64,000 nucleotides of DNA from Myxococcota bacterium (GCA_028278345.1 JANQEL010000227.1:43924-107923); one strand, 5' to 3'; positions 11,916 to 30,952 are shown, counted from the stretch's first letter. A program made the numbers and translations. The notes: generated from the sequence alone by a model not told the origin.

Positions 11916-12636
11916 CGTACATGCCTCCGTTGACGTGCACGACCGTGCCGTTGATGTAACTCGCGCGCGTCGAGAGATAGGCGACCACGTCGGCGACTTC
12001 GTCTGCCGTTCCCATGCGGCCCTGCGGAATCCGCGAGAGGATCTGTTCCTTGACCTCGTCGGGAAGCTCTTCCGTCATGTCGGTGTCGATGAAACCGGGG
12101 GCGACGGAGTTCACCAGGATCTCGCGGCCGGCGAGCTCCTGGGCCAGCGACTTCGTGAAGGCGTCGAGCCCGGCCTTCACCATCGTGTACGGCACCTGAC
12201 CGGGGTTGCCGGTGTGCCCCACCACGCTCGAGATGTTCACGATGCGGCCGGTTCCCTTTCGCATCATGAAGCGTCGCAACACCATCTTCGAGAGATACCA
12301 GGTACCGCGAGCCACCTGGGCCACCGAATCGTATTGCTCGAGGTTCATCGTCAGCATCGGGGCGTTGACGTTGTAGCCCGCATTGTTGACCAGCACGTCG
12401 ACGCGACCGGCCACCTCCTTCAACTCCTTCACCATCGCGTCGATGGCGTCGGAATCGGAGAGATCGGCGCGCACGCCGAAGCCGTCGGGCAACTCGGCGA
12501 TCAGCTTCTTCGCCTTCTCCTCGCTCGAGCGATAGTGGACGCCCACGCGAAAGCCCTCTTCCGCGAGTCGTCGGCAGCAGGCTGCACCGATCCCGGTGCC
12601 GCCCCCCGTCACGAGTGCCACCGCGGCCTCGCTCAT
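11908..12636 (-). CDS. fabG: 3-oxoacyl-ACP reductase (SDR, FabG-like)
   Basis: Contains VTGGGTGIGAA, NNAG and YTMVKAG (YxxxK). 242 aa. The ATG at 12636 overlaps the FabA stop (ATGA). Confidence 0.9.
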   Translation of the reverse strand: MSEAAVALVTGGGTGIGAACCRRLAEEGFRVGVHYRSSEEKAKKLIAELPDGFGVRADLSDSDAIDAMVKELKEVAGRVDVLVNNAGYNVNAPMLTMNLEQYDSVAQVARGTWYLSKMVLRRFMMRKGTGRIVNISSVVGHTGNPGQVPYTMVKAGLDAFTKSLAQELAGREILVNSVAPGFIDTDMTEELPDEVKEQILSRIPQGRMGTADEVADVVAYLSTRASYINGTVVHVNGGMYGG

Positions 12637-13235
12637 CGATCGTCCCTCCCGCCGTGGGCGTGTTCCGAAGCCAGGGGATAGTCGCCGTAGTCGATGCCGG
12701 TGAAGGTGCCGACGCGCGCCTTCTCGATGCGGTAGATCTCCTGATCGTCGACCAGCACGCGCGCGTTGCCGACCGCCATCGAGGCGCCCTGGGTTTCGAG
12801 TTCGGTGTAGCGGCGCACGTCGATCTCGTAACGCACGAGTTTGTCGTAGGGCCGGATCTGCCCCATGAAGTCGACTTCGCCCACGCCGAGAGCGCGACCG
12901 GTTCCCGGCCCACCGCGCCAGACGCAGTAGAAGCCGAGCAACTGCCACACGGCATCGAGGCCGAGACAGCCCGGCTGCACCGGATCGCCGTTGAAGTGGC
13001 AGTGGAAGAACCAATCGTCGAGACCTACGTCGGCTTCCGCAACGATGCGCCCGCGCGCCTTGTTGGCTTCGATCTCGGTCACGCGATGGAACATCATCAT
13101 CGGCGGAGTCGGGAGCCGCGCGCGAAAGCTCTCCGGCGGATCCTTCACCAGGCGGCCATAGGCAAAGGCCAGCAGTTCGGCACGATCGAAGTGATCGCGG
13201 CCGCGAAATTCTTCATACGTGATCGGGTTGGTCAC
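12633..13235 (-). CDS. fabA: FabA-type 3-hydroxyacyl-ACP dehydratase/isomerase
   Basis: FFHCHFNGDPVQPGCLGLDAVWQLLGFY closely matches the FabA signature FFxCHFxxDPVMPGCLGLDAxWQL. I chose the GTG at 13235 because it overlaps the KAS III stop (GTGA). The longer ORF runs to 13286. Confidence 0.8.
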   Translation of the reverse strand: MTNPITYEEFRGRDHFDRAELLAFAYGRLVKDPPESFRARLPTPPMMMFHRVTEIEANKARGRIVAEADVGLDDWFFHCHFNGDPVQPGCLGLDAVWQLLGFYCVWRGGPGTGRALGVGEVDFMGQIRPYDKLVRYEIDVRRYTELETQGASMAVGNARVLVDDQEIYRIEKARVGTFTGIDYGDYPLASEHAHGGRDDR

Positions 13236-14278
13236 GCTGCCCCTCCCGACGACGCGCGATTGAACCGCAACAGATATCGCCCCCACGTCAGTCCCGACCC
13301 GACACCCACCAGCGCGATGTCATCGTCGGCGTTCCACTTGCCCCAGTTCTGCGACACGACCGATGCACTGCTCGCGCCGCCGGTGTTGCCATACCAGTCG
13401 ACGTTGAAGTGATGGCGCTCTTCGGGAATGTCGCACCGGTTGCAGACGTTTTCGAGCATCCGGAGGTTCGCCTGGTGGCCGATGAAGTGCAGGCGTCGGC
13501 CCTCTTCGGCGTATTCCTCTTCGAGGGCGCGATAGCCCGCGATCGTCTTCTTGATCGCGAACATCTGCACCGTGCGCCCTTCCTGCTCGAAGAAGCCGAG
13601 GCGTGGGATCACCACCTTGTCCTGCCCGGCGGGATTCGACGCGAGATTGCTGCCCAGCACCGTCGCCGCACCCGGGTTTCGCGTCGAAAAGACCGCCGCC
13701 GCTGCGCCATCGCCCCAGAGCACCGCCGAGTTGCGGTCCGAGTAGTCGATGGTTCGCGTCATGACTTCGGCGGCCACCACCAGCACGAAATCGGGCAATG
13801 CGCCCTCGTCCATCATGGAGAGCATGCGGACCGCCGCGAAGTAGCTGGTGCAGGCCGAAGCGACGTCGAAGGCCGGGGCTTCGATGCCCAGCAGATCGGC
13901 GACACGCGCGCCCTCCGCCGGGATCGCGTAATCGGGGGCACAGCCCCCGCCGATCACCATGCCGATCTGGTCCGCCGTCACGCCTGCGCGCTCGAGGGCC
14001 ATCCTGGCCGCTGCGGCGCCCATCTCGGCGTTCGACACCTCGGCCACCGCGATCCCCTCGCGCGGATCGCGATTCTTCGTTTGTGCGATGTAGTCGAGGG
14101 GGAGCCCCGTGCGCCGCGAGCGAATTCCGACGCGATCCATGATCCAGTCGTCACTCGTCTCGATCTCGAGGCTCTCGAGAAAGGCGTTGGTGATCTCGTT
14201 GGGCGGGTGGAAGTGCCCGATCCCGTGGAGTTGAAGACTCACTTCGCGCACCCCCCATTCATCTGAGGCACTCCACAT
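13232..14278 (-). CDS. Beta-ketoacyl-ACP synthase III family (FabH-like)
   Basis: The Cys-His-Asn contexts are ASACTSYFAA, IGHQANLRM and YGNTGGASSASV. 348 aa as the ORF is drawn, and the exact start is uncertain. It is the first gene of the operon. Confidence 0.8.
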   Translation of the reverse strand: MWSASDEWGVREVSLQLHGIGHFHPPNEITNAFLESLEIETSDDWIMDRVGIRSRRTGLPLDYIAQTKNRDPREGIAVAEVSNAEMGAAAARMALERAGVTADQIGMVIGGGCAPDYAIPAEGARVADLLGIEAPAFDVASACTSYFAAVRMLSMMDEGALPDFVLVVAAEVMTRTIDYSDRNSAVLWGDGAAAAVFSTRNPGAATVLGSNLASNPAGQDKVVIPRLGFFEQEGRTVQMFAIKKTIAGYRALEEEYAEEGRRLHFIGHQANLRMLENVCNRCDIPEERHHFNVDWYGNTGGASSASVVSQNWGKWNADDDIALVGVGSGLTWGRYLLRFNRASSGGAA

Positions 14279-14642: not shown

Positions 14643-17498
14643 TCACCCCTGCGGGGAAGGCGTCAGACCCAGACCGACCTCGTGGAGAACACCGGGGAGC
14701 GACTCGAGCTCGATCAGCGAAATCTTGCTCCCTCCGGGGAGAGCTTCCTGAAGAGTGCGGAAGTACGGCCGGTCGGGGCGGGCGTCGACGATCAGCGCGA
14801 TCCCGCGGTCGGTCTCGCTGCGGATCAGCCGCCCCATCATCTGCTTGAGGTGCAGCTTCATCTTCCCGAGCGAGAGGCGGGTGAAGGGGTCTTCCCCCGC
14901 TTCGCGCACGCGCTCCTCTCGCCGGCGGCGAAGCTCGTTCGGCACCTCGAAGGGGAGCTTCTCGATCACCACCGCCTGCAGGGCATCCCCCGGGAGATCG
15001 AGACCCTGCCAGAAGGTGCGCGCCCCGAGCAGCACCGCGCCCTCGCTCGAGTTCGCGAAGCGATCGACCAGGGCGGCGGGATCGTCGTGGGCCCGCACCG
15101 GGGCGAGCACTTCGATGCCGGTTCGATCGAGGGCCGTACTCAAGAGCGCCGCGACTTCACGCATGCGCTTCAGGCTCGTGAACAGGCCGAGGGTTCTTCC
15201 GCCGAGTTCGCGGGCGAGCAGTTCGAGGGCGCGCGCCGTGTCGGCCACCGGATCGCGTACCCGTGCCAACGCCACCGCGCGCATGTTGTCGTGATACGGA
15301 AACGGACTCGCGACGCGAACGCGTTCGACGAGATCGCGACCGCGTTCTTCGATCTCGAGTTCGCCGAGCGCCGCGAAGGCATCGTTGGCAACGAACAAGC
15401 TCGCCGACACCGCGGCGAAGGTGTCGAGTCCATCCATGAAACCCGCGTGATACGAAGACGCCGGACTCACCGGACGAATCGAAAGTCGAAAGCGCGAACC
15501 CGGTCGGCCGAGTCCTTCGAAGGAAGACACGTGACTCGGCGAATCACTGAACGCCATCCGCAACCCGTCGGCCGCGTCGTAGAGATCGCCGATGCCGCGC
15601 ATCAGCGGGTCGTCGCTTTCGTCGACGGTCGTGCGTTCGGCGGCGAGGGCTTCGGCCGCCTGGGCGACGCCGTCGAGATGGGTCGCGGCTTCGCGCGCGA
15701 AGCGGGCCGCGTCGGGAAGATGGACGTCGGGCTCCTTCGGTAGCTGCAGTTCGCCGTACTCGTTCGCGAAGCCCACGATGCTCTTCGCGAGCCCGCCGAA
15801 TGCGACGTCCACTTCGCGTCGCCACGAGAGCACGTCGACCGCGACCCGCTTTCGCAGTTCGACGGGAAGCAGGCGCGCCTCGCTGCGATCGCTCGGGCGG
15901 CCGAAGATCTCGTCGATGCGTTCGAGCACATCGTCGGGCTGCACCACCTGGGCGTACACGTTGTCGGCCACCCCGGCGAGCTCGTGGGCCTCGTCGCAGA
16001 TCACATGGGCGAGCCGCGGATAGTCGGGCGGCCAGCGCAAGAGCAGATCGTGGTTGGCCACCACGAGGTCGGCCTTCGCGAGCGCCGCCCGGCGGGCGCC
16101 GAAGGGACAACCCGGCGTTTTTCCACAAGCTTCCCGGCTGCAGTGCTCGGCGCGGCCAGCAACGGAACGTGTTCGCAAATCGCGCAAACGGGGGTAGCGG
16201 CGCATCAGGGCTGCTGGGAGGTCGCCGATCTCGGCGTGAGCGCGCGTGCGCGCACAGGTGAGCAGCACGCTGTAGGCCGCGCGCTCGTCGGGGAAGACGT
16301 CGATGTCGCGACCCTCTTCGAGCACCTGGTTCAAGCGTCTTTCGCAGGCGTAGTTCGCCCGGCCCTTGATCGAGAGCGCGCACAATCGCGGATGACCCAG
16401 GAAGCGCGCCGCGGCGGCAATGTCCTTCCGCAGCAACTGATCCTGCAGGAGTTTGGTTCGCGTCGAGACGACGATCGGTCCGCGCTCGCCGCGCTCGCGT
16501 CTTTCCCTCGCGAAGGGGATCGATGCCGCCAGATAGGCGAGTGACTTCCCGACGCCGGTTCCGCCTTCGAGCAGCAGTGTCTTGCCGTCGCGCAGGTGGC
16601 GGATGAAGTGGCGCGCGAGTTCGATCTGCTCTTCGCGCACGCGGTAGCCAGGGAAGTAGCGACGACCGCGGGCTTCGTCGTGAAGTGCGTCGAGGATCGC
16701 ATCTTCGTCGAAGGGGACGGGGGCTTCGTCGCAGTCGCCGATCTCGATGAACTGCGCGCCCGGTTTGGCCGCGTCTTCGCCCCTGCTTTCCAATCCCTCG
16801 ATGATCAACGGGCCGTGCAGCAGTTCGAGCCACGGCGACTCGGGTTCGTAGCGATCGAGGGCGCTGCGCGCGTTCGCGTAACGCGCTTCGCCGAGCTCGG
16901 CACCGGCGGCGATCGCGGCGAGCACCTCTGCGGTATCGAGGGCGTCCTGCAGCGCGCGATGTCGTTCCTCGCGACCGAGCAGCGTGCGCACGATGGTCGC
17001 GAGGCGCAGATCCGAGGCGTCGGGATGGGTGAGCGCGAGCAGGTCCTGGGTGTCGAGGAAGACCGCGCGCTTGAAGTCGGGTGAAAGGAAGCGCGAGAGG
17101 AAGCTGCGCTCGAACTCCGCGTTGTGGGCGATGATCACGCGGCCCGCGAGGGCTTCCTCGACGCGGTAGCGCACGTCGTCGAGGCGCGGCGCACCCTCGA
17201 CGTCGCGGTCGCGCAACCCGGTGATGCGCTGGATCTCCGGCGGCAGCGGCGCGCTCGGGCTCACAAGGCCGCCCAGGGCCGAGATCTCGACCCCGGAGGC
17301 GGCGAAATCGATTGTGAGAACGCCTACTTCCAGGATTTCGGCCGCCGAATCGCCCGGCAGCCCGGTGGTCTCGAGATCGACGATCGCCAGCGGCCCCGCG
17401 CGCTCGACGAGGCGGCGAAACCAGGCCGGATCGAAGCCGAGATCGTCGGCCGTGCGGGGCTGGAGCGAGAAGGCCTCGGCGGCTGGGGTCTCGGGCAA
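14643..17498 (-). CDS. dinG: DinG-family ATP-dependent helicase with N-terminal DnaQ-like 3'-5' exonuclease domain
   Basis: The exonuclease motifs are IVDLETTGL and IIAHNAEFERSFL. Walker A is GGTGVGKS and the DEAH box is VICDEAHEL. Cys-rich Fe-S insert residues fall in YACERRL, LLTCAR and CSREACGKTPGCPF. Confidence 0.85.
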   Translation of the reverse strand: MPETPAAEAFSLQPRTADDLGFDPAWFRRLVERAGPLAIVDLETTGLPGDSAAEILEVGVLTIDFAASGVEISALGGLVSPSAPLPPEIQRITGLRDRDVEGAPRLDDVRYRVEEALAGRVIIAHNAEFERSFLSRFLSPDFKRAVFLDTQDLLALTHPDASDLRLATIVRTLLGREERHRALQDALDTAEVLAAIAAGAELGEARYANARSALDRYEPESPWLELLHGPLIIEGLESRGEDAAKPGAQFIEIGDCDEAPVPFDEDAILDALHDEARGRRYFPGYRVREEQIELARHFIRHLRDGKTLLLEGGTGVGKSLAYLAASIPFARERRERGERGPIVVSTRTKLLQDQLLRKDIAAAARFLGHPRLCALSIKGRANYACERRLNQVLEEGRDIDVFPDERAAYSVLLTCARTRAHAEIGDLPAALMRRYPRLRDLRTRSVAGRAEHCSREACGKTPGCPFGARRAALAKADLVVANHDLLLRWPPDYPRLAHVICDEAHELAGVADNVYAQVVQPDDVLERIDEIFGRPSDRSEARLLPVELRKRVAVDVLSWRREVDVAFGGLAKSIVGFANEYGELQLPKEPDVHLPDAARFAREAATHLDGVAQAAEALAAERTTVDESDDPLMRGIGDLYDAADGLRMAFSDSPSHVSSFEGLGRPGSRFRLSIRPVSPASSYHAGFMDGLDTFAAVSASLFVANDAFAALGELEIEERGRDLVERVRVASPFPYHDNMRAVALARVRDPVADTARALELLARELGGRTLGLFTSLKRMREVAALLSTALDRTGIEVLAPVRAHDDPAALVDRFANSSEGAVLLGARTFWQGLDLPGDALQAVVIEKLPFEVPNELRRRREERVREAGEDPFTRLSLGKMKLHLKQMMGRLIRSETDRGIALIVDARPDRPYFRTLQEALPGGSKISLIELESLPGVLHEVGLGLTPSPQG

Positions 17499-17720: not shown

Positions 17721-17969
17721 TCAACCGCCGGCGAGGGCGGGAAGAAAGTGCACCTCGCTGCCATCCGGCACGGGTTCGAAGAGCGGATCCGCGACCATCT
17801 CGCCGTCGATGGCGACCGCGAACTTGTCACCGAGGCGTTCTTCGAAGCCCGGGTAGCGCGCTTCGATCGCGCGGATCACGGCGCGCACGGTACCGGCCTC
17901 GACTTCGAGGGTCGTCTGACCGTCGACATGGGATTGGAGTCGCGAAGGAACGCTGACCGTGCAGCTCAT
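17721..17969 (-). CDS. MoaD/ThiS-family ubiquitin-fold sulfur-carrier-like protein
   Basis: 82 aa ending ...HFLPALAGG with a terminal Gly-Gly. The ATG at 17969 overlaps the stop of the Mo-hydroxylase large subunit (ATGA). Confidence 0.7.
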   Translation of the reverse strand: MSCTVSVPSRLQSHVDGQTTLEVEAGTVRAVIRAIEARYPGFEERLGDKFAVAIDGEMVADPLFEPVPDGSEVHFLPALAGG

Positions 17970-20230
17970 CGCTTCGCGGTTCCGCGCTCCTGTATCGCGG
18001 CCAGCAGCCTTGGGGGCGAAATCGGAAGTGACTCCATGCGCACGCCGGTCGCGGCGGAGACCGCATTCGCGACGGCTCCGAGCGCCGGCACGAGCGGCGT
18101 CTCCCCCACTCCGCGCACACCGTAGGGGTGCTTCGGGTTCGGCACTTCGACGATCACCGTGTCGATCATCGGAACGTCGGAGGCCACGGGCATGCGGTAG
18201 TCGAGGAAGCCCGCGTTCTCGACTTCGCCATCCTCCGAAAACACGTAGGCCTCGTTCAACGCCCAGCCGATCCCCTGCACGGCACCGCCCTGCATCTGAC
18301 CTTCCACGTAACTCGGATGGATCGCACGCCCCGCGTCCTGGATCGCCGTGTAGCGAATCACTTCGGTGCGCCCGGTCTCGGGATCGACTTCGACATCGCA
18401 CAGATGCGTGGCGAAGCCCGGGCCGACGCCGCGCGCGTTGAGCTGCGCCTGCCCGTTGATGGGGCCACCCGTCTTCTCCATGCGACGTGCGATGTCGGCG
18501 ACCGTGAGCGGGTCGGCCTCGACGCCGCTGCCTTCCGCGGGAACACAACGCCCGTCGGCGAACACGACCTGATCGACTTCGCACTCCCACATCATGGCCG
18601 CCCGCGCGCGCAACTCGGCGATGATCTCCTTGCAGGCGTTGATCACCGCCCAACCCGTCGCGAAGGTGGTGCGGCTTCCGCCCGTGCCGTCGTTGAACCC
18701 GACGCCCTCGGTGTTCGCCACGACGGGGCGCACCTGATCGACGTCGATGCCGAGTTCCTCGGCGGCGAAGATCGCCATCGAAGCGCGCGAGCCGCCGATG
18801 TCGGGGTTGCCTTCCACGACGATCGCTCCGCCGTCTTCGGTGAGGTGCACCTCGGCGCTCGACTGCTGCCCGGCGTTGAACCAGAAACCCGAAGCCACGC
18901 CGCGCCCCTGATTCTCGCCCAGCGGAGCCGTGTAGTGGGGATGCGCCTTCGCGGCCTCGAGGGTTTCGATGAAGCCGATCGTCCGGAAACGCGCGCCGAA
19001 GGACATCTGCGAACCCTCTTTCATCGCGTTCGCGATGCGCAGATCGATCGGGTCGACGTTCAGTTCGCTTGCGAGTTCGTCGAGCAGGCTCTCGAGGGCG
19101 AATGCGGGCATCGGAGCCCCGGGTGCGCGATAGGCGTGCATCTTCGGCTTGTTGAGCACGACGTCGAAGCCCTCGATCACGAAATTCGGGATCTCGTAGA
19201 CCGAGAAGATGGTCATCACCCCGGCGTTCACCGGCGAGCCGGGAAAACCGCCGGCCTCCATCGCCATGTTGACGCGCCCGGCGATCAGGTCGCCGTCGCG
19301 GGTCGCGCCGATCTCGAGTTCGATCTTGCTCCCCGCAGCGGGTCCGCTCGCGCGGAAGACCTCTTCGCGCGTCATCACCATTTTGACCGGTCGGGCCGCC
19401 TTGCGGGAGAGCACGACAGCGACGGGTTCGAGATAGACGGTCGTCTTCCCCCCGAAGCCCCCGCCGATCTCGCTCGGCGTGACCTTGATTCGCGACTCGG
19501 GTATCCGCAACACGGCCGCCGTGTCGCGGCGAATGCCGAAGCCACCCTGGGTGCAACACCAGATCTCGCTGAGCCCTTCCTCGTTGGTTCGCGCAACGAC
19601 CGCGTGGGGTTCGATGTAGCCCTGGTGCACGGTCTCGGTGCGAAACGTGCGCTTGAGCACGACGTCGGCCGAGGCCAAGGCCGCCTCGACGTCACCGCGT
19701 TCGTAGTAGAAGGTCTCGGCGATGTTCGACGGGGGTTGCCCCTCGCGGCCTTCCGGCTCGAAGTAGTCGTGCAGCACGGGGGCATCGTCCGCCAGGGCGT
19801 CGTCGAGGTCGAAGACCGCGGGAAGGGGTTCGATCTCGACTTCGATCTCCTTCAGCGCGCGTTCGGCGATCGCTTCACTCGTCGCCGCCACCGCGGCCAG
19901 CGCGTGCCCGCGGTAGAGAACCTTCTCGCGCGCCATGATGTTGCGCGAGCGCTCGGCGGACTCCCTGCCGTGCTTCAGCGGGATGTCGGGAAGATCGGCC
20001 GCGGTCGCCACGGCCTTCACTCCCTCCATGGCCTCCGCCTTCGAGGTATCGATGCGCACGATGCGACCGTGGGGCACGTCGCTGCGCAGCACCTTCCCCC
20101 ACAGCATGCCGGGAAAGGAGAGGTCGGCGCCGAATCGCGCACGCCCCGTCACCTTGTCGAGGCCATCGGGGCGGATGGGGCGAGTGCCCACCCAGCGATA
20201 CTTCGAATCTTCGCGTGCCTCGACACTCAT
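17966..20230 (-). CDS. Molybdopterin-binding large subunit of a xanthine dehydrogenase / CO dehydrogenase / aldehyde oxidase family enzyme
   Basis: Contains RWVGTRPIRPDGLDKVTGRARFGADL and SEIGGGFGGKT, with a typical length of about 754 aa. I chose the ATG at 20230 (MSVEARED...). Confidence 0.85.
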   Translation of the reverse strand: MSVEAREDSKYRWVGTRPIRPDGLDKVTGRARFGADLSFPGMLWGKVLRSDVPHGRIVRIDTSKAEAMEGVKAVATAADLPDIPLKHGRESAERSRNIMAREKVLYRGHALAAVAATSEAIAERALKEIEVEIEPLPAVFDLDDALADDAPVLHDYFEPEGREGQPPSNIAETFYYERGDVEAALASADVVLKRTFRTETVHQGYIEPHAVVARTNEEGLSEIWCCTQGGFGIRRDTAAVLRIPESRIKVTPSEIGGGFGGKTTVYLEPVAVVLSRKAARPVKMVMTREEVFRASGPAAGSKIELEIGATRDGDLIAGRVNMAMEAGGFPGSPVNAGVMTIFSVYEIPNFVIEGFDVVLNKPKMHAYRAPGAPMPAFALESLLDELASELNVDPIDLRIANAMKEGSQMSFGARFRTIGFIETLEAAKAHPHYTAPLGENQGRGVASGFWFNAGQQSSAEVHLTEDGGAIVVEGNPDIGGSRASMAIFAAEELGIDVDQVRPVVANTEGVGFNDGTGGSRTTFATGWAVINACKEIIAELRARAAMMWECEVDQVVFADGRCVPAEGSGVEADPLTVADIARRMEKTGGPINGQAQLNARGVGPGFATHLCDVEVDPETGRTEVIRYTAIQDAGRAIHPSYVEGQMQGGAVQGIGWALNEAYVFSEDGEVENAGFLDYRMPVASDVPMIDTVIVEVPNPKHPYGVRGVGETPLVPALGAVANAVSAATGVRMESLPISPPRLLAAIQERGTAKR

Positions 20231-20359
20231 GGATGACGACTCCCGTGGCGGTGTAGATCTTTCGCGGATCCGAGTAAGCTTGGCGGACTCAATTCCCGCG
20301 TCAACGTTCGCGGGTTGCGATTCGCGCCCGCCCACTCCCGCACACGGAATTCACCTCCC

Positions 20360-21226
20360 ATGGAAATCGAGCGATACGTTGCCCCTGGCACGCTCAGCGA
20401 AGCGGCGGGCCTGCTCGCAGACGAATCGATCAACCCGGTCGTGATGGCCGGCGGAACCGATCTGCTCGTCCAGGCCAAGCTGCAGGAAAGCGATCCCTTC
20501 GTCGTCGTCGACGTGAAGCAGATCCCCGAGCTGCGCGAGATCCGCGTGAGCGACCGCGGCTTCGAGGTCGGCGCCGCCGTCACCGGCGCCGAACTGGGGG
20601 AACACGATGAACTCTGCGCGGCCTGGCCCGGCGTCGTCGAAGCCGTGGAGTTGATCGGCTCGACCCAGATCCAGGGACGCGCGACCGCGGGTGGCAACGT
20701 CTGCAATGCGTCGCCCGCGGCGGATTCCGTGCCCGCATTGATCGCGGCCGGCGCTGTCGGCCGGGTGTTCGGCCCCGATGGCGAACGCGAGGTTCCGGTC
20801 GAGGAGATCGCGACCGGACCGGGTACCACTTCGCTCGGTCGGGGCGAACTGCTCGTTTCCTTTCTGCTCGAGCCTCCGAACGCCCGCCGCGGCGATGCCT
20901 ACCTGCGCTTCATTCCGCGCACCGAAATGGACACCGCGGTCCCCGGGGCGGGCGTCTGCCTCACCCTCGACGAAGCTGGCCAGGTCGAAAGCGCGCGCGT
21001 GGGTCTCGGCGCGGTCGCCCCGACCGCGCTGCGCGTCGATGCCGCAGCCGAAGCCATTGCCGGTGGCCCCCTCGATGGCGACGCCCTCGAACGCCTCGCG
21101 AGCGCAGCCCGCGCCGCCTGTCGCCCGATCGACGACAAGCGTGGCACGGCCGACTACCGAACCCAGCTGGCCGGCGTACTCGCGCGCCGCGCCGCGAAGA
21201 TCGCGCTCGAGCGCGCCCGGAGCTGA
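20360..21226 (+). CDS. FAD-binding medium subunit (CoxM/XdhB-like) of the Mo hydroxylase
   Basis: MEIERYVAPGTLSEAAGLL...VMAGGTDLLVQAKL is an FAD_binding_5-type pattern. It is divergent from the large-subunit gene. Confidence 0.85.
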   Translation: MEIERYVAPGTLSEAAGLLADESINPVVMAGGTDLLVQAKLQESDPFVVVDVKQIPELREIRVSDRGFEVGAAVTGAELGEHDELCAAWPGVVEAVELIGSTQIQGRATAGGNVCNASPAADSVPALIAAGAVGRVFGPDGEREVPVEEIATGPGTTSLGRGELLVSFLLEPPNARRGDAYLRFIPRTEMDTAVPGAGVCLTLDEAGQVESARVGLGAVAPTALRVDAAAEAIAGGPLDGDALERLASAARAACRPIDDKRGTADYRTQLAGVLARRAAKIALERARS

Positions 21227-21238
21227 GCGAAGGACGAC

Positions 21239-21718
21239 ATGCCGAAGACCCACATCACGACCCGCATCAACGACGACGAAGTCGAGTTCCTCTGCGAGCC
21301 GCGCCAGACGTTGCTCGAAGTCCTTCGCGAAGAACTCGGCCTTACGGGTACCAAGGAAGGTTGCGGTACCGGCGATTGCGGTGCGTGCTCGATCACCCTC
21401 GACGGCCGCCTCGTCTGCGCTTGTCTCGTCCTCGCCGTCGAAGCCCAGGGTCGGGAGATCGGCACCGTCGAAGGGGTCGCCGATGGGGACACGCTCCATC
21501 CGCTGCAGGCGAAGTTCCTCGAACACGCGGCGCTGCAGTGCGGCATCTGCACGCCGGGGTTGATCGTCGCCGCGAAGTCCCTGCTCGAACGCAACCCCGA
21601 TCCCAGCGAAACGGAGATCCGCTACTGGCTCGCGGGCAACCTCTGCCGCTGCACGGGCTACGACAAGATCATTCGCGCCGTGCAGGATGCGGCGAGCGAG
21701 CTGCGCACCTCTCAGTAG
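21239..21718 (+). CDS. [2Fe-2S]-binding small subunit (CoxS/XdhC-iron-sulfur-like) of the Mo hydroxylase
   Basis: Contains GCGTGDCGACSI, CGICTPG and CRCTGY. 159 aa. Confidence 0.9.
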   Translation: MPKTHITTRINDDEVEFLCEPRQTLLEVLREELGLTGTKEGCGTGDCGACSITLDGRLVCACLVLAVEAQGREIGTVEGVADGDTLHPLQAKFLEHAALQCGICTPGLIVAAKSLLERNPDPSETEIRYWLAGNLCRCTGYDKIIRAVQDAASELRTSQ

Positions 21719-22029
21719 GAGACTTTCGTCTCGAGGCGTCCGTCTTCTCCGCGAACGATGCGCACGCGCGTCATGCACGCCATGCAGTAGAGCTGATCGC
21801 CTTCTCGCAGTTCGCGCGCCGAACGCATCACGATCTTGCACACCGGGCAGAGTGCTTCGTTCGGGGCCAGCTCATCCTCCGGTCCGAGCCACCGCCGGTA
21901 GAACTTGCGGTACTTGCGCGGCACCTCGTCGAAGCCGCGATCGTCGAGCTCATAACGACGGCGCGGCCCCGATTCGGCCCCTCCCTCCCCTACGTCGACC
22001 ATCTGGGTCGCCACGGATCCGTCCGCCAT
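21712..22029 (-). CDS. Small Cys4 zinc-ribbon / rubredoxin-like protein
   Basis: 105 aa with CPVC-X17-CMAC near the C-terminus. The ATG at 22029 shares one nt with the upstream stop. No recognisable family beyond the Cys knuckles. Confidence 0.5.
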   Translation of the reverse strand: MADGSVATQMVDVGEGGAESGPRRRYELDDRGFDEVPRKYRKFYRRWLGPEDELAPNEALCPVCKIVMRSARELREGDQLYCMACMTRVRIVRGEDGRLETKVSY

Positions 22030-22799
22030 CACAACCCCAATCGACGCACGGCTTCGCGATAGTCGCGACCGAGCTTCGTGATGGTGTCTTTCTCGACGCC
22101 CAGGGCCTTCGCGGTGTGTTCGAAGGTGTTGAGCGCGAAGGCCTCGAGCTCGTTCTTCACCAGCTCGATCCAGGCGCGCCGCGAAGGGTCGGTCCGCAGA
22201 CGTCGGGCGATCTCGTTCTCGCCGAAGCCGATGTGACGCCGCTCGTCGCGCAACATGCGCTCGAGCATGTCGACGGTCACCGGGTCGCCCACCGACGCGT
22301 GGGCACGGAAGGCCGCAAACTCCATCGCCTCGAGCGAGACGTTTTGCGCGAAGATCGCGAGATCCCACTGCTTGGTATCGACGAGATGCAGGAGCTTGTC
22401 CCGAAACTCCAGCATCGCCGGCGTCGCGCGCCGTTCGATTTCGGCAGTGGGATCTTCGACGCCGATGTCCTCGAGCCTCTGCAGGATGACCTCGACGTGA
22501 CGCGCTTCGTCGACCACCTGGGTCGCGAGGAAGATCATGCTCGAGCGGTTCGGCGCAATGCGAACCAGCCCACTCGACGCTTCGAGGGCGGCGGTCTCCG
22601 CGACGGCGTAGTTGCAGAGCGCCGTCGTCAGGCTCTCGACTTCGTCCGGCGCGAGATCGTCGGCCGCAATGTCGGCGCGGTGCCCGTGTTCGAGATCGGA
22701 CAGATAGTCCTGCACCGCGCCGAACCAGTGGTCGAAGCTTCGAACCTCTCGTTCGAAGACATCCGGTTCCAGATCGTGGATCTCACGAATCTGCGACAC
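22029..22799 (-). CDS. Ferritin-like diiron-carboxylate protein (paralogue B)
   Basis: The E...EXXH...E...EXXH pattern is AETAALEASSGL, DEARHVE, SLEAMEF and DERRHIGFGE. 256 aa. Confidence 0.7.
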   Translation of the reverse strand: MSQIREIHDLEPDVFEREVRSFDHWFGAVQDYLSDLEHGHRADIAADDLAPDEVESLTTALCNYAVAETAALEASSGLVRIAPNRSSMIFLATQVVDEARHVEVILQRLEDIGVEDPTAEIERRATPAMLEFRDKLLHLVDTKQWDLAIFAQNVSLEAMEFAAFRAHASVGDPVTVDMLERMLRDERRHIGFGENEIARRLRTDPSRRAWIELVKNELEAFALNTFEHTAKALGVEKDTITKLGRDYREAVRRLGL

Positions 22800-22811
22800 G
22801 CAAACCTCCGA

Positions 22812-23693
22812 TCAGGGCCGGGTCGGCGTCTGGTATTCGATGCCAACGCGATCGAGGCGCTTCTTGAACTCGCCGAGCACGGTGTCGGCCAGCAGGCCTT
22901 CCATCTCTTCGGGTTCCATCGTGGCGAGGTTGGCGCCCTGCCAGTTCGCGGCTCCGCCGCCGGCCTGCTCGCGCGCGTGCTGCATTTCCTCGCGCGCCTG
23001 TCCGTCGCGGAACTGATCCGCGAACGTGGCGAGCATGAAGTACGACATGTCGCGCTGCATGCGTTCGATCTCGGGCTTCTTCTCGGGGAACTCGCGAATC
23101 AGGGCACCGATCCGGTTCTCGCCAAAGCCCACGTGACGTCGCTCGTCGGCGATCGTGCCGGAGAGCGTCTTCGCGAACTTCGAGTTGAGGTCGCGATTGG
23201 ACGCCTCGAGCATCTCGAAGACGGTGAACGCCATGCCTTCGAGGATGATGTTCTGGCCGACGACGCCCGCGACGAAATCCTTCTTGTCGACCTTCTCGAG
23301 AAGGATCTCGGCGAACTGCGCGAGATTGGGGTTCGTCTTTTCGGCGATGACCGTCTCGAGTTCATCCTTCTTCACGCCCAGGTCGTAGAGGCGCTGGGTG
23401 AAGATCTCGACGTGCCGCGCCTCGTCGAGGGTCTGCGTCGCGAGGAAGCGCTTGCTGGCTTCGTCGGGCGCCGCGTTGATCAGGCCCGAACTCGCGGCGA
23501 GTGCGCAACGCTCACCCGCGACCAACTGCGTCGTGAGCCGGATTGCCTGCTCGCGCATCATCGGATCCTGAAGCACGAGTTCCGGTTCCTTCTGGTTCGG
23601 TTCGTGCCCGAACTCGGTCTCTTCGAGATAACCCTGTGGGCAGGATTCGAGCCAGTACTGGATGGAATAGGCGTCGAGGAAGTTGGTCGTCAT
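22812..23693 (-). CDS. Ferritin-like diiron-carboxylate protein (paralogue A)
   Basis: Contains GERCALAASSGL, DEARHVE, ILEGMAF and DERRHVGFGE. AGGAG sits upstream of the ATG at 23693. 293 aa, and clearly paralogous to the next gene. Confidence 0.7.
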   Translation of the reverse strand: MTTNFLDAYSIQYWLESCPQGYLEETEFGHEPNQKEPELVLQDPMMREQAIRLTTQLVAGERCALAASSGLINAAPDEASKRFLATQTLDEARHVEIFTQRLYDLGVKKDELETVIAEKTNPNLAQFAEILLEKVDKKDFVAGVVGQNIILEGMAFTVFEMLEASNRDLNSKFAKTLSGTIADERRHVGFGENRIGALIREFPEKKPEIERMQRDMSYFMLATFADQFRDGQAREEMQHAREQAGGGAANWQGANLATMEPEEMEGLLADTVLGEFKKRLDRVGIEYQTPTRP

Positions 23694-23757
23694 GATGTCT
23701 CCTGATTCGCGGGCGCAACCCAGGAAACAGCAAGTTCCGTGCCGCCGGGCACGCAAC

Positions 23758-23770
23758 TGACATCATGTCA
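23758..23770. promoter_or_regulatory. Perfect palindrome TGACAT-C-ATGTCA upstream of the diiron operon
   Basis: It lies 65-77 nt upstream of the 23693 start. On the coding (minus) strand it contains a TTGACA hexamer. Confidence 0.3.
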
Positions 23771-23900
23771 AACGGCGGTAATGCCACACACAGTCGTGAC
23801 ACCGGATGGATGAGGGGCGGGGCGCCACGATGGGGACGGCGCCTGGGACAGATCGGGACCCGCCGCTCGCGAGGCCCGCTCGTCGGCCGGCTGACGGCCC

Positions 23901-24347
23901 CTACGACTCCTCGATCCGGTGGTTCATCGGGGGCTTGGGGATCACGACGACGTCTTCGTTCGCGTAGCGCTTCTCGCACTGGCCGGCGCTTTGCTTCACG
24001 ATCGCGCGCTCGAACGCGGCATCGAGGGCGAGCCACTCCTCCATCAACTCGGGCTCGACCCCCGCCTCTTCGATCGACTCGCGAAGCAGCGCGTGGCGCA
24101 GCTCGAAGAGTTCCTTGTTGATGAAGATGTGCTTGTGGGCGGTGTTGGCCGCCTTGCCGCGGTAGACGCGCGGGCCCCCGAAGGCCTGGCCCATGAAGTC
24201 GCTCTGCTGGGCTTCGATGTGCTTCTGGTCGACCTCGCTGAAGTAGCCCTTCAGCCAGGGGTGTTCGTAGACCTTGTCGTAGAAGAGCTTGTGGATCTTC
24301 TCGATGACCGGTCGGCCGCCGAGGCGTTCGTAGAGGGGTCTGCTCAT
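23901..24347 (-). CDS. Truncated haemoglobin (2/2 globin)
   Basis: 148 aa. The trHb pattern is MSRPLYERLGGRPVIEKIHKLFYDKVYEHPWLKGYF...HIEAQQSDFMGQAFGGPRVYRG...HKHI. Confidence 0.8.
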   Translation of the reverse strand: MSRPLYERLGGRPVIEKIHKLFYDKVYEHPWLKGYFSEVDQKHIEAQQSDFMGQAFGGPRVYRGKAANTAHKHIFINKELFELRHALLRESIEEAGVEPELMEEWLALDAAFERAIVKQSAGQCEKRYANEDVVVIPKPPMNHRIEES

Positions 24348-24438: not shown

Positions 24439-24476
24439 CAGGAGGGGTGAGACGAACTGTCGCCCCACCCCTCCTG
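24439..24476 (-). terminator. Terminator-like hairpin after the TPP-enzyme gene
   Basis: A perfect 11-bp stem (CAGGAGGGGTG / CACCCCTCCTG) with a 16-nt loop, 30 nt past the stop at 24506. It is followed on the minus strand only by CTTTG, a weak U tract. Confidence 0.5.
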
Positions 24477-24505: not shown

Positions 24506-26152
24506 CTAGACGTAGATGCCGCCCTTGAACTCGCGGTCCTGGCGGATCATCACGTTGATGAGGGCCGGCTTGCCCGAAGCGGCAGCCCGCTCGAGGGCGG
24601 GACGCAGCTCGGCCGGATCCTCGACGTTCTCGCCGTAGCCGCCCAGCGCCTCGACGACCTTGTCGTAGCGGGTGCGGTTGAGGATCGCGCCGTCGAGGCG
24701 GTCCCAACCCATCATCGCACCCTGGGGTCGCATCATCTGGCCCCAGGCGCCGTCGTTACCGACGATGCCGATGATCGGCAGGTTGAAGCGCACGGCGGTG
24801 TCGTACTCGAAGCCGTTCAAACCGAACGAACCGTCGCCGTAGACGATCACCACGCGCTTGTCGGGATGCGCGAGCTGCGCCGCCAACGCGAAGGGCATGC
24901 CGACACCGAGGGTTCCGAGCGGCCCCGGATCCATCCATGCACCCGGCCCCTTCACCGGAATGATCTTCGCCGCGGTGGCCACGATGTCGCCGCCGTCGCC
25001 GATCACGATCGGGCTGTCGAGGGTGTCGAGCCAGTCGCGTACTTCCCTGCACATGCGCTGGGGGTCGACGGGGGTTTCGTCGCTGTTGAGCGCCGCCTGC
25101 ACCTTGGCTTCGGCTTCGTTCTCGAGCTCGCGCAGTTCGTCGCGCCAGGCCGTGAAGTCGAGTTGCAGCCCCTGGTTCTTCATCTCTTCCGAGAGCATCT
25201 CGAACGAACAACCCACGTTGCCCACGAGCGGCACGTCGGTCTGACGGTTCTGGCCCATCAGGATGTTGTCCATGTCGAGCTGGATCACCTTGGCGTCTTC
25301 GGGGATGGCCTTGCCGAAGCGCATGCGGAAGTCGAGCAGCGTACCCGCGAGCATGATGCAGTCGGTCTTGGCCAGCGCATCGCGCCGCGAGCGGTTCAGG
25401 AACTGCGGCGACTCCCACGGCACCGTGCCGCGACCCATGCCGTTGCAGTACGTGGGCAGGTGGATCTCGTCGATGAAGCTGTTCATCGCGGCTTCACCTT
25501 CCGACCACTTGACCGCGGTACCGGCCATCAGCATCGGGCGTTCGGCCTTCGAGAGTTCTTCGAGGGCGTTGCGCACCTCCGTGCGATCGGGCGAGATGCG
25601 CGGCGCCGTCGTGCGGATGCGCGGCACCACCACCTCTTCGTCGGCCACCTGCCCCATGAAGATGTCCATCGGGATCTCGAGGAAGGCGGGGCCGGGGGTG
25701 CCCGAGATCGCGTGGCGGATCGCCAGCTCGATGTACTCGGGGATGCGATAGCTCTCGAAGCAGGCGTCGGCGTACTTCGTGATCGGGCGCATCACGCCGA
25801 TGTGATCCATCTCCTGCAGCGAGCCGCGGCGCAGGTTGTTGAACGGGCCCTGCCCGCCGAAGACCAGGATGGGCGAGTTGGCGCGCCAGGCGTTCGCCAC
25901 ACCCGTCACGCCATCCGTCACACCGGGGCCTGCCGTGATCGCGGCCACGCCGACCTTTCCGGGGTTGCAGCGTGCCCATGCGTCGGCGGCGTGCACGGCG
26001 GCCTGCTCGTGGCGCACGTCGACGATCTTGATCCCCTCGTCGAGGCAACCTTCGTAGAGCGGCATGATGTGCCCGCCCGACAGAGTGAAGATGACTTCGA
26101 CGCCGGCCTCTTTCAGGGCCTTGGCGGCGAGCTGTCCACCGGAAAACGGCAT
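24506..26152 (-). CDS. Thiamine-diphosphate-dependent enzyme (acetolactate synthase / oxalyl-CoA decarboxylase / 2-hydroxyacyl-CoA lyase family)
   Basis: The N-terminus is MPFSGGQLAAKALKEAGVEVIFTLSGG. Also contains ITAGPGVTDG and the TPP motif GDGSFGLNGFEYDTAVRFNLP. 548 aa. Confidence 0.85.
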   Translation of the reverse strand: MPFSGGQLAAKALKEAGVEVIFTLSGGHIMPLYEGCLDEGIKIVDVRHEQAAVHAADAWARCNPGKVGVAAITAGPGVTDGVTGVANAWRANSPILVFGGQGPFNNLRRGSLQEMDHIGVMRPITKYADACFESYRIPEYIELAIRHAISGTPGPAFLEIPMDIFMGQVADEEVVVPRIRTTAPRISPDRTEVRNALEELSKAERPMLMAGTAVKWSEGEAAMNSFIDEIHLPTYCNGMGRGTVPWESPQFLNRSRRDALAKTDCIMLAGTLLDFRMRFGKAIPEDAKVIQLDMDNILMGQNRQTDVPLVGNVGCSFEMLSEEMKNQGLQLDFTAWRDELRELENEAEAKVQAALNSDETPVDPQRMCREVRDWLDTLDSPIVIGDGGDIVATAAKIIPVKGPGAWMDPGPLGTLGVGMPFALAAQLAHPDKRVVIVYGDGSFGLNGFEYDTAVRFNLPIIGIVGNDGAWGQMMRPQGAMMGWDRLDGAILNRTRYDKVVEALGGYGENVEDPAELRPALERAAASGKPALINVMIRQDREFKGGIYV

Positions 26153-30247: not shown

Positions 30248-30718
30248 TCAGAAGTTCTCGGAGAGGTAGTTCTCGAGACCGACGCTCTCGATCAGCCGCA
30301 ACTGGGTCTCGAACCACAGGATGTGGTCGCTTTCGGTGTCGGTGAGCAACTCTTCGAGCATCTCACGGGTTCCGTTGTCGCCCTCCTCGCGGCAGAGCGC
30401 GATCGCCTCGTTGAGGTTCTTCGCCACCTCGATCTCGATGGCGAGATCGTTTTCGAGGATCTCCTTGGGCGTGGTTCCGATCGTGAGCGGAGCACGCGCC
30501 GCGACATCGGGTCGACCGTCGAGGAAGAGAATCCGTTTCACGATGCGGTCGGCGTGCCCTCTCTCGTCTTCGCTTTCGTGTCCGATGCGTTCGTAGAGCT
30601 TCATGTAGCCCCAGTTCTCGAGCATGCGCGATTGCACGAAGTACTGATCGATCGCCGTGAGCTCGACGGCGAGCAATGCGTTGAGGGTGTCGATGACTCG
30701 TTGGCTGCCTTGCATCAT
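30248..30718 (-). CDS. bfr: Bacterioferritin
   Basis: MQGSQRVIDTLNALLAVELTAIDQYFVQSRMLENWGY...ESEDERGHADRI. The start is one of the adjacent ATGs at 30715 or 30718. Confidence 0.9.
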   Translation of the reverse strand: MMQGSQRVIDTLNALLAVELTAIDQYFVQSRMLENWGYMKLYERIGHESEDERGHADRIVKRILFLDGRPDVAARAPLTIGTTPKEILENDLAIEIEVAKNLNEAIALCREEGDNGTREMLEELLTDTESDHILWFETQLRLIESVGLENYLSENF

Positions 30719-30952
30719 GACTCCGTGCACGAGGGAAGAAACGTCGATTGCGAATGCGACCGGCCGGGATGGTGATGGAAGGAAGCCTCGCGATCAAGAA
30801 TCACGCGCTCGAGACCACACTGAGACTCATCGACACATCGCAGCGCTGGGAGGTCGGAACCGAACCAATCGATTTCGAATCCAGTTGATCCTTCGATCGG
30901 CGGCCGTCTTCCTACAACTCGCAGGTGAGTTCGGGTGCACGGTGCCGGATAC

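Follow-up and report, generated by a model that had tools for sequence, protein, structure and literature searches.

What reaction might two adjacent ferritin-fold diiron proteins carry out together with a small four-cysteine (Cys4) protein encoded beside them, and when would the cell use them? The question is raised by a stretch of 64,000 nucleotides from a Myxococcota bacterium (GCA_028278345.1 JANQEL010000227.1:43924-107923; the whole stretch is called the window below), in which five minus-strand genes stand in a row, encoding a thiamine pyrophosphate (TPP) enzyme, a globin, the diiron proteins A and B, and the Cys4 protein. We found that A, B and Cys4 form an operon-like trio whose linkage in other genomes is far above chance. 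We propose that the trio is a diiron oxidase or oxygenase of three subunits that belongs to the VlmB/R2lox-like branch and is induced at low oxygen, a reading to which we give about an even chance of being correct. The superfamily and its general chemistry are already known; the A/B subfamily, the partner family of Cys4 proteins with a LysW-like fold, and the link to a sigma-54 low-oxygen regulon appear to be new, and literature searches found no paper on the trio.

Diiron-carboxylate enzymes perform some of the hardest oxidations in biology, and new branches of them have repeatedly given new chemistry, as with VlmB, aldehyde-deformylating oxygenase (ADO) and R2lox. The branch formed by A and B is unusually conserved, with about 70% identity or more across distant lineages, and is accompanied by an unannotated partner family. 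Furthermore, its apparent induction at low O2 is counter-intuitive for an O2-activating enzyme.

The operon and its three proteins

The trio is laid out as follows, in the direction of transcription.

23698-23703, minus strand: Shine-Dalgarno sequence AGGAGA of gene A, read from the sequence
22812-23693, minus strand: gene A, open reading frame of 293 aa, ferritin-fold diiron protein, the best conserved of the trio
22029-22799, minus strand: gene B, open reading frame of 256 aa, paralogue of A with the full ligand set
21712-22029, minus strand: Cys4 gene, open reading frame of 105 aa with CPVC-X17-CMAC

A and B are 12 nt apart, and the ATG of the Cys4 gene overlaps the stop codon of B by 1 nt, a layout that had been given correctly in a preliminary description of this locus. 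Words of the AAGGAG type are enriched upstream of A in other loci as well, and the 3′ end of the operon is convergent with a plus-strand coxS-like gene.

For comparison we used the best 80 of 154 stretches encoding an A relative, taken from one-genome-per-species contigs; these loci are labelled Myxococcota, Binatia, Thermodesulfobacteriota and others, and all are from uncultured organisms. The order A-B-Cys4 was found in 64 of the 80 loci, and B follows A in 67, showing the conserved linkage on which the preliminary description had made its proposal depend. Three loci have A followed directly by the Cys4 gene, without B, and A is alone in about ten; most of these A-only copies group in two sub-clades of a neighbour-joining tree and therefore look like secondary duplications. 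In the reverse direction, two Cys4 homologues on long contigs were again preceded by a B-type gene, and an unannotated 298-aa gene, similar in size to A, is nearby. The non-coding DNA before A is always longer than 45 nt and usually 100-300 nt, consistent with A having its own promoter. Because of this gap, and because the gene after Cys4 varies by locus, the trio appears to be a self-contained transcription unit; a conserved downstream partner was rejected, since the downstream neighbours are unrelated between loci.

A and B share 37% identity over 218 residues (E 8e-39), and each has the complete E/ExxH/E/ExxH set of metal ligands (E61, E91, H94, E152, E184 and H187 in A; E68, E98, H101, E157, E186 and H189 in B). 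In ligand alignments built from the 80 related loci (81 A-type and 67-68 B-type sequences), the six ligands are invariant in 81 of 81 A and 67-68 of 68 B sequences, so that the earlier view of A and B as ligand-complete paralogues is upheld. The third motif had been written as LE(G/A)MEF for both proteins. This is right for B, which reads LEAMEF here and LE(A/S)(L/M)EF across B-type sequences, but not for A, which reads LEGMAF, with an invariant Ala155 and no second Glu. Since the extra glutamate of the ExxE (Glu160) is specific to B, where it is invariant in 67 of 67 sequences, the metal sites of A and B appear to be systematically different.

Homologues of A numbered 1974 at E <= 1e-5. The best 120 of these are 71-83% identical to A and come from metagenomes and assemblies labelled Myxococcota, Deltaproteobacteria and similar. 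Automatic names among the homologues include 'ferritin-like', 'rubrerythrin' and 'PaaA', and some carry a precomputed PF05138 hit. The family is nevertheless a small one: among 1.84 billion representatives clustered at 50% identity, only 71 fell below 1e-30 for A, and the whole A clade is one representative. Domain fusions among distant relatives comprise one weak fusion to an acyl-CoA-dehydrogenase N-domain only, and the distant relatives in Leptospira and beside MMPL transporters have neither B nor the Cys4 gene and offer no transferable function. The only relative found in a cultured organism, WP_004474266 of Leptospira santarosai (L081:6001-6930), is a distant, single-copy, ferritin-like protein whose gene adjoins those of an amino-acid permease, an SCP2 protein and a large aminotransferase, without a B or Cys4 partner. 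The window also has a separate 160-aa classical ferritin/Dps-type gene (30251-30730, minus strand; Pfam Ferritin, 124 bits), which is 6 kb away and unrelated to A and B.

The predicted structure of A (AlphaFold2; predicted local distance difference test, pLDDT, 87.7) is helical. Its best structural match is VlmB (8wvr/6d9f), with a template modelling (TM) score of 0.80-0.81, 25% identity and E 7e-9, followed by Chlamydia R2c, R2lox and ADOs. By sequence, A matched 6d9f/8wvr with E 1.5e-17 as a single sequence and 5.7e-21 as a family profile against the PDB, and its alignment with the VlmB homologue takes in an N-terminal YWL..QG.L..GH segment. On the ligand set, together with the matches of the A model to R2, ADO and VlmB, we assign A and B to the ferritin-like diiron-carboxylate superfamily. 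Within it, A probably lies in the same branch as VlmB, its nearest solved relative at 25% identity.

The trio does not fall readily into a named family. Pfam matches to A, B and the small protein were listed at E <= 1, and each score is given with the cut-off of its family. Ribonucleotide reductase (RNR) R2/R2lox membership was rejected, with A scoring below both cut-offs (17.8 bits against 33.6 for Ribonuc_red_sm and 32.8 bits against 194 for the NCBIfam R2lox model). In addition, the residue four positions after the first His ligand, which we take to be the position of the radical tyrosine in E. coli R2, is Phe98 in A and Ile105 in B, a second ground for rejecting RNR R2. AurF (13 bits against 29.6), COQ7 (12 against 23.5), MiaE_2 (19.6 against 25.2) and Ald_deCOase (23.5 against 28) were all below cut-off, and FA_desaturase_2 gave no Pfam match to A or B at E <= 1; AurF, acyl-ACP desaturase, COQ7, MiaE and ADO membership were thus rejected, and the likeness to AurF and acyl-ACP desaturase that had been read from the motif spacing fell away. 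The likeness to PaaA/PaaC turned out to be one of size only. PF05138 (PaaA_PaaC) matches neither A nor B at E <= 1, the 50 structures closest in fold to A include no PaaA or PaaC, B keeps its six ligands, and no paa genes are near the trio in the 80 loci. Rubrerythrin was rejected because A scored 13.9 bits against 22.8 in the Pfam profile, which had no match to B, and because the Cys4 module is a separate gene, not fused. The sole curated family model whose cut-off B exceeds is Phenol_Hydrox, a generic model (cut-off 24.4 bits; B 32.4, above; A 14.5, below). The other parts of a bacterial multicomponent monooxygenase are absent, in that no alpha subunit of ~500 aa, effector or reductase is linked (A has 293 aa and B 256 aa). 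By these Pfam and NCBIfam profiles the module lies outside the well-characterised families, and none of the findings that the preliminary description had named as fatal to its proposal was made.

The 105-aa Cys4 protein was present as first described, and its four Cys are invariant in 40 of 40 aligned homologues. It has 692 homologues of 90-114 aa, all annotated 'hypothetical' and none with a Pfam domain. The N-terminus is variable and acidic, and the basic core R23-Y105, which carries CPVC-X17-CMAC, is strongly conserved, with 36 invariant columns that include both CxxC pairs, several Tyr/Trp and the C-terminal Tyr. The protein ends in this Tyr in 64 of 67 loci and in 40 of 40 aligned homologues. 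The isoelectric point (pI) of the core is about 9.3, against about 5 for the acidic A and B; this complementary charge, together with the strict linkage, suggests that the Cys4 protein is a docking subunit, and the conservation of the whole 83-residue core also fits such a role.

The C-terminal half of the Cys4 protein is predicted to have a LysW-like zinc-ribbon fold. Specifically, in the AlphaFold2 model (pLDDT 81) the C-terminal ~48 residues (about 58-105) matched the LysW zinc ribbon in Foldseek with probability 0.99-1.0 and target-normalised TM 0.65-0.78, at weak E-values of 0.05-0.2; the best hits were 3vpb_E, 3wwn_B and 5eio_C. The small protein has no Pfam match to a rubredoxin profile at E <= 1 and no NCBIfam family at all. 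LysW has an acidic C-terminal tail with a terminal Glu. A LysW-type carrier was rejected, since the Cys4 protein is basic, has no acidic tail and ends in Tyr, with Tyr105 directly following the last strand of the model and no flexible acidic tail beyond it, and since no ATP-grasp partner is near the trio in related loci.

Promoter and genomic context

The region upstream of A was compared with that of L001, the closest related locus, which also served as the reference for synteny.

23730-23743, minus strand: sigma-54-type -24/-12 element GGCACGGAACTTGC, starting 50 nt upstream of the A start codon
23744-23872, minus strand: upstream promoter region, partly conserved with L001 in local alignment; candidate activator-binding region
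23758-23770, minus-strand promoter region: palindrome TGACATCATGTCA, inside 23744-23872

The operon has a putative sigma-54-type promoter, with -24 GG and -12 GC at canonical spacing. GGCACGGAACTTGC is the sole match to GGCACG-N4-TTGC on either strand of the 64-kb window and is identical in L001. When the 250 nt upstream of A were scanned in 79 sequences, an equivalent element was found in 39, against a background of 0.016 per 250 nt; these elements are mostly 38-100 nt from the A start codon, and one also precedes the diverged A-like gene of L083. No sigma-70-like promoter was found for the operon, and an FNR/CRP box (TTGA-N6-TCAA) was rejected, being present in 0 of 79 upstream regions. The palindrome TGACATCATGTCA, to which the preliminary description had drawn attention, is indeed in the promoter region and did not arise in 100 shuffles of the window; it is not conserved, being absent upstream of A in every other locus, L001 included, and was therefore rejected as an operator. 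In L068, L077 and L079, which have no sigma-54 element, the region 110-145 nt upstream of A has a common word, (G)ATTCCCACGC(G/C), that may be the site of a different regulator.

The neighbours of the trio in the related loci are listed below as raw counts.

REC-AAA+-HTH sigma-54 activator: 14 of 80 loci (activator genes next to the operon in 14-16 related loci)
Protoglobin-domain histidine kinase, often divergent from A: 10 of 80 loci
CBS proteins: 5-14 of 80 loci, by method
Hemerythrin: 6-7 of 80 loci, directly adjacent in L003, L008, L010 and L060
WS/DGAT: 7 of 80 loci
Kinase-like protein with an AAA_33 domain: 6 of 80 loci
Universal stress proteins (USPs): 4-5 of 80 loci
Crp/Fnr regulators: 5 of 80 loci
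Phosphofructokinase: 4 of 80 loci
FixI/FixG/FixP/CcoN (cbb3 oxidase cluster): 3-4 of 80 loci
NnrS: 2 of 80 loci

In L017, L018, L073 and L086 the kinase/activator pair flanks the trio on one side and the cbb3 cluster on the other, and the diverged A-like gene of L083 is in the same kinase/activator/CBS context. P450, luciferase-like monooxygenase and acyl-CoA dehydrogenase genes are near some loci. In M. xanthus, the NmpRSTU 'oxygen utilisation' regulon has a protoglobin kinase, NmpU, and an NtrC-like regulator, NmpR, uses sigma-54 promoters and is induced by hypoxia; the NmpR-regulated genes encode a CBS protein, a USP, a P-type ATPase with a cbb3 oxidase, and HemN with a hemerythrin (PMC11841059). 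The context of the trio in its relatives appears to match this gene set of the Nmp low-oxygen regulon.

Two further arrangements were observed among the relatives. A complete 'hypoxia island' at L086:228-14336, on a 1.2-Mb contig, begins with a USP, a protoglobin kinase and a sigma-54 regulator. Next, one strand carries a hemerythrin, a CBS protein and a 298-aa gene that matches A in size and has no annotation, while B-Cys4 is on the opposite strand; DsbD_2-FixS-FixI-FixH-FixG-FixP-FixQ-FixO comes after these. In one lineage a 149-aa UPF0093/CopD membrane-protein gene, which we take to be HemJ-like (PF03653), is between A and B (L088:5715-6164 and L089:517-966) and may point to a connection with haem biosynthesis; after it come two long genes without annotation (768 and 653 aa).

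Upstream of the trio in the window are the following features.

23901-24347, minus strand: truncated haemoglobin gene, Pfam Bac_globin 51.1 bits against a cut-off of 21; 207 nt upstream of A
24439-24476, minus strand: hairpin after the TPP gene, 17-bp stem, -42.9 kcal/mol, z = -5.6
24506-26152, minus strand: TPP enzyme gene, acetolactate-synthase/2-hydroxyacyl-CoA-lyase-like

The best PDB matches of the globin are THB1, group 1 truncated haemoglobins and M. tuberculosis HbN, and by sequence it is assigned to group 1 of the truncated haemoglobins. Its position about 200 nt upstream of A on the same strand was as first described, but not its part as head of the module: it was found in 0 of 80 related loci, and in L001 this promoter comes straight after this TPP gene, with no globin between. 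The globin is thus a lineage-specific neighbour outside the conserved module. A weaker version of the link survives, in that the O2-binding hemerythrin adjoins the operon in the 6-7 loci listed above.

The hairpin between the TPP and globin genes, also pointed out earlier, is real by its stem and folding energy and is likely a terminator isolating the upstream TPP gene, with a weak U-tract and no entry in the terminator scan. Because of this strong hairpin, and because L001 has a different hairpin with a T-run at the same place, the TPP gene looks like a separate transcript. Its product is near acetolactate synthase PRK05858 and 2-hydroxyacyl-CoA lyase in NCBIfam, below both cut-offs, and has 97% protein identity to L001:2184-3827; the flanking OmpA, TPR, A, B and Cys4 proteins have 56-82%, which suggests unusual constraint on the TPP enzyme or a recent transfer.

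The gene order in L001 is TPR-OmpA-TPP-A-B-Cys4-DinG-like helicase. Compared with it, the window has two insertions, one being the globin, which separates the TPP terminator from the A promoter, and the other three coxS/M/L-like genes after Cys4. The latter are xanthine-dehydrogenase/CO-dehydrogenase-family genes (17966-21718; large Mo subunit on the minus strand, FAD and 2Fe-2S subunits on the plus strand), regarded as an insertion because they are absent from the syntenic L001 locus. The DinG-like exonuclease-helicase (14646-17498), the syntenic downstream neighbour of the trio in L001, is beside FabA-like and KAS III-like genes (12636-14278, minus strand).

Proposed mechanism and rival explanations

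In the proposed mechanism, transcription would start at the sigma-54 promoter 50 nt upstream of A and would be activated by an NtrC-type response regulator, which in many relatives is paired with a haem (protoglobin) sensor kinase, in the manner of NmpU/NmpR. Because of the genomic context, we infer that the operon is switched on when O2 is limiting. A and B would form an R2-type heterodimer in which each subunit has its own dimetal site, and the two sites would be non-equivalent, with the extra ExxE glutamate in B only. The basic LysW-fold Cys4 protein would be an obligate accessory subunit bound to the acidic A and B, acting as a structural or effector subunit, or as a one-electron relay if its Cys4 site holds Fe. 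The substrate of the A/B enzyme would be a small metabolite, probably polar, oxidised with O2 that is in short supply; the neighbouring truncated haemoglobin may act as an O2 buffer here, and hemerythrin may do so elsewhere. If confirmed, this would give the Nmp regulon, described only recently, an enzyme among its outputs, and would provide a biochemical target in uncultured Myxococcota and Binatia that are common in soil and sea.

Several observations weigh against this proposal. The neighbour counts are without a genome-wide background, and at least one low-oxygen-type neighbour is present in only 29 of the 80 loci. Half of the loci have no recognisable sigma-54 element. Neither the activator nor the protoglobin kinase is encoded within the 64-kb window. 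The M. xanthus NmpR box (GCGCA-N5-TGCGC) was rejected, occurring in 0 of the 39 sigma-54-bearing sequences upstream of A, and when the regions upstream of the sigma-54 elements were searched for an inverted repeat in common, nothing convincing came out. Furthermore, the paper on the M. xanthus Nmp regulon mentions no ferritin-like gene (PMC11841059). As had been said of this operon from the start, it includes no reductase or substrate-defining enzyme, and none is conserved near the trio in the 80 loci; the chemistry is therefore inferred from the fold alone.

A conserved substrate-defining gene would be superfluous if the trio were a scavenger, and this is the main rival, although we consider it unlikely. 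The trio would be a split rubrerythrin-like system in which A and B reduce H2O2, O2 or NO with electrons from an Fe(Cys)4 small protein, act on no organic substrate, and give protection at oxic/micro-oxic transitions. A diiron bundle with a Cys4 module is the rubrerythrin design, and helix C of rubrerythrin carries ExxE, as does the third ligand helix of B, where the motif is invariant. The O2- and NO-related neighbours, namely hemerythrin, NnrS, group 1 truncated haemoglobin and cbb3 oxidase, also suit a scavenger. Arguing for the oxidase/oxygenase instead, the Rubrerythrin profile score of A is below cut-off and B has no match, the extra Glu is absent from A, and the small protein matches no rubredoxin profile and resembles the LysW zinc ribbon in its model. 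In addition, the nearest relatives (VlmB, R2lox and ADO) are O2-activating enzymes with organic substrates.

Somewhat more doubtful still is that the trio represents an unrecognised low-oxygen system, a heterodimer with two different dimetal sites and a new LysW-fold Cys4 family, in which the C-terminal Tyr of the partner, with its other Tyr/Trp, would be a radical or electron relay or a modification site. If this were so, cells could run an essential O2-dependent reaction at scarce O2.

The near-invariance of the terminal Tyr (64 of 67 loci; 40 of 40 aligned homologues) also raises the idea, which we hold to be improbable, that the small protein is itself the substrate or a carrier. A and B would oxidise or cross-link the C-terminal Tyr, or would act on a metabolite carried on the C-terminus as on LysW; the LysW-like fold and the existence of A-Cys4 pairs without B are compatible with this. 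However, the Tyr comes directly after the last strand of the model with no flexible acidic tail, no ATP-grasp or ligase partner is present, and it is the whole 83-residue core that is conserved, not the terminus alone.

It is very improbable that the trio serves catabolism as a multicomponent oxygenase, built like PaaABC or like the bacterial multicomponent monooxygenases, whose substrate would be aromatic, CoA-bound or an alkane and in which the small protein would take the role of PaaB or a gamma subunit. The subunit sizes are similar, B exceeds the Phenol_Hydrox cut-off, some homologues have the precomputed PF05138 hit or the automatic name PaaA, and the P450, luciferase-like monooxygenase and acyl-CoA dehydrogenase genes are near some loci. 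On the other hand, A and B themselves have no PF05138 match at E <= 1, and PaaA/PaaC structures are outside the 50 best fold matches. Neither subunit has lost its ligands, in contrast to PaaC and to the beta subunits of multicomponent monooxygenases, and the trio is linked to no gene for a reductase, an effector, a ligase or ring cleavage. Finally, a natural-product N-oxygenase converting hydrazine to azoxy groups, as suggested by VlmB being the closest solved relative of A, can be given hardly any weight, given that the identity is only 25%, that no VlmO-type hydrazine synthase gene, tRNA-dependent enzyme or other biosynthetic gene or cluster is near the trio in the 80 loci, and that identity of ~70% or more across distant lineages in a stress-regulon context is unlike a biosynthetic cluster.

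Comparison with known systems

RNR R2 and R2lox provide the next-best fold and profile matches of A, whose first ligand is Glu; the trio differs from them in having no R1 partner here. PaaABC has a large diiron subunit with a smaller paralogue and, as a bridge, a protein of about 100 aa, and the trio is like this core in having three proteins of similar sizes. However, PaaC has lost metal ligands whereas B keeps all of them, the small protein here has Cys4 and a LysW-like fold, and paaD, paaE and paaK are absent. The trio shares with rubrerythrin a diiron four-helix bundle, a Cys4 module and, in B only, the ExxE in the third ligand helix; here, instead, the Cys4 module has a gene of its own, and the 105-aa product has a 17-residue spacing and resembles LysW in fold. 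LysW itself resembles the Cys4 protein in the zinc-ribbon fold of the C-terminal ~48 residues, but the Cys4 protein has an extra conserved N-terminal segment of ~35 residues.

With regard to regulation, the NmpR box is absent here and the window has no kinase or activator, but the gene cast of the NmpRSTU regulon is the same as that around the trio in relatives, and the trio likewise has a sigma-54 element. As for the enzyme, VlmB (8wvr), which converts hydrazine to an azoxy group in valanimycin biosynthesis (PMC11705231), and 'Protein 60' of Kitasatospora setae (6d9f) would belong to the same ferritin-fold branch as A. They have in common with A the E/ExxH/E/ExxH set, the TQ..DEARH helix and the YWL..QG.L..GH segment. 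The trio differs from VlmB in having two ligand-complete paralogues and a dedicated Cys4 protein, together with a sigma-54 element and a low-O2 context.

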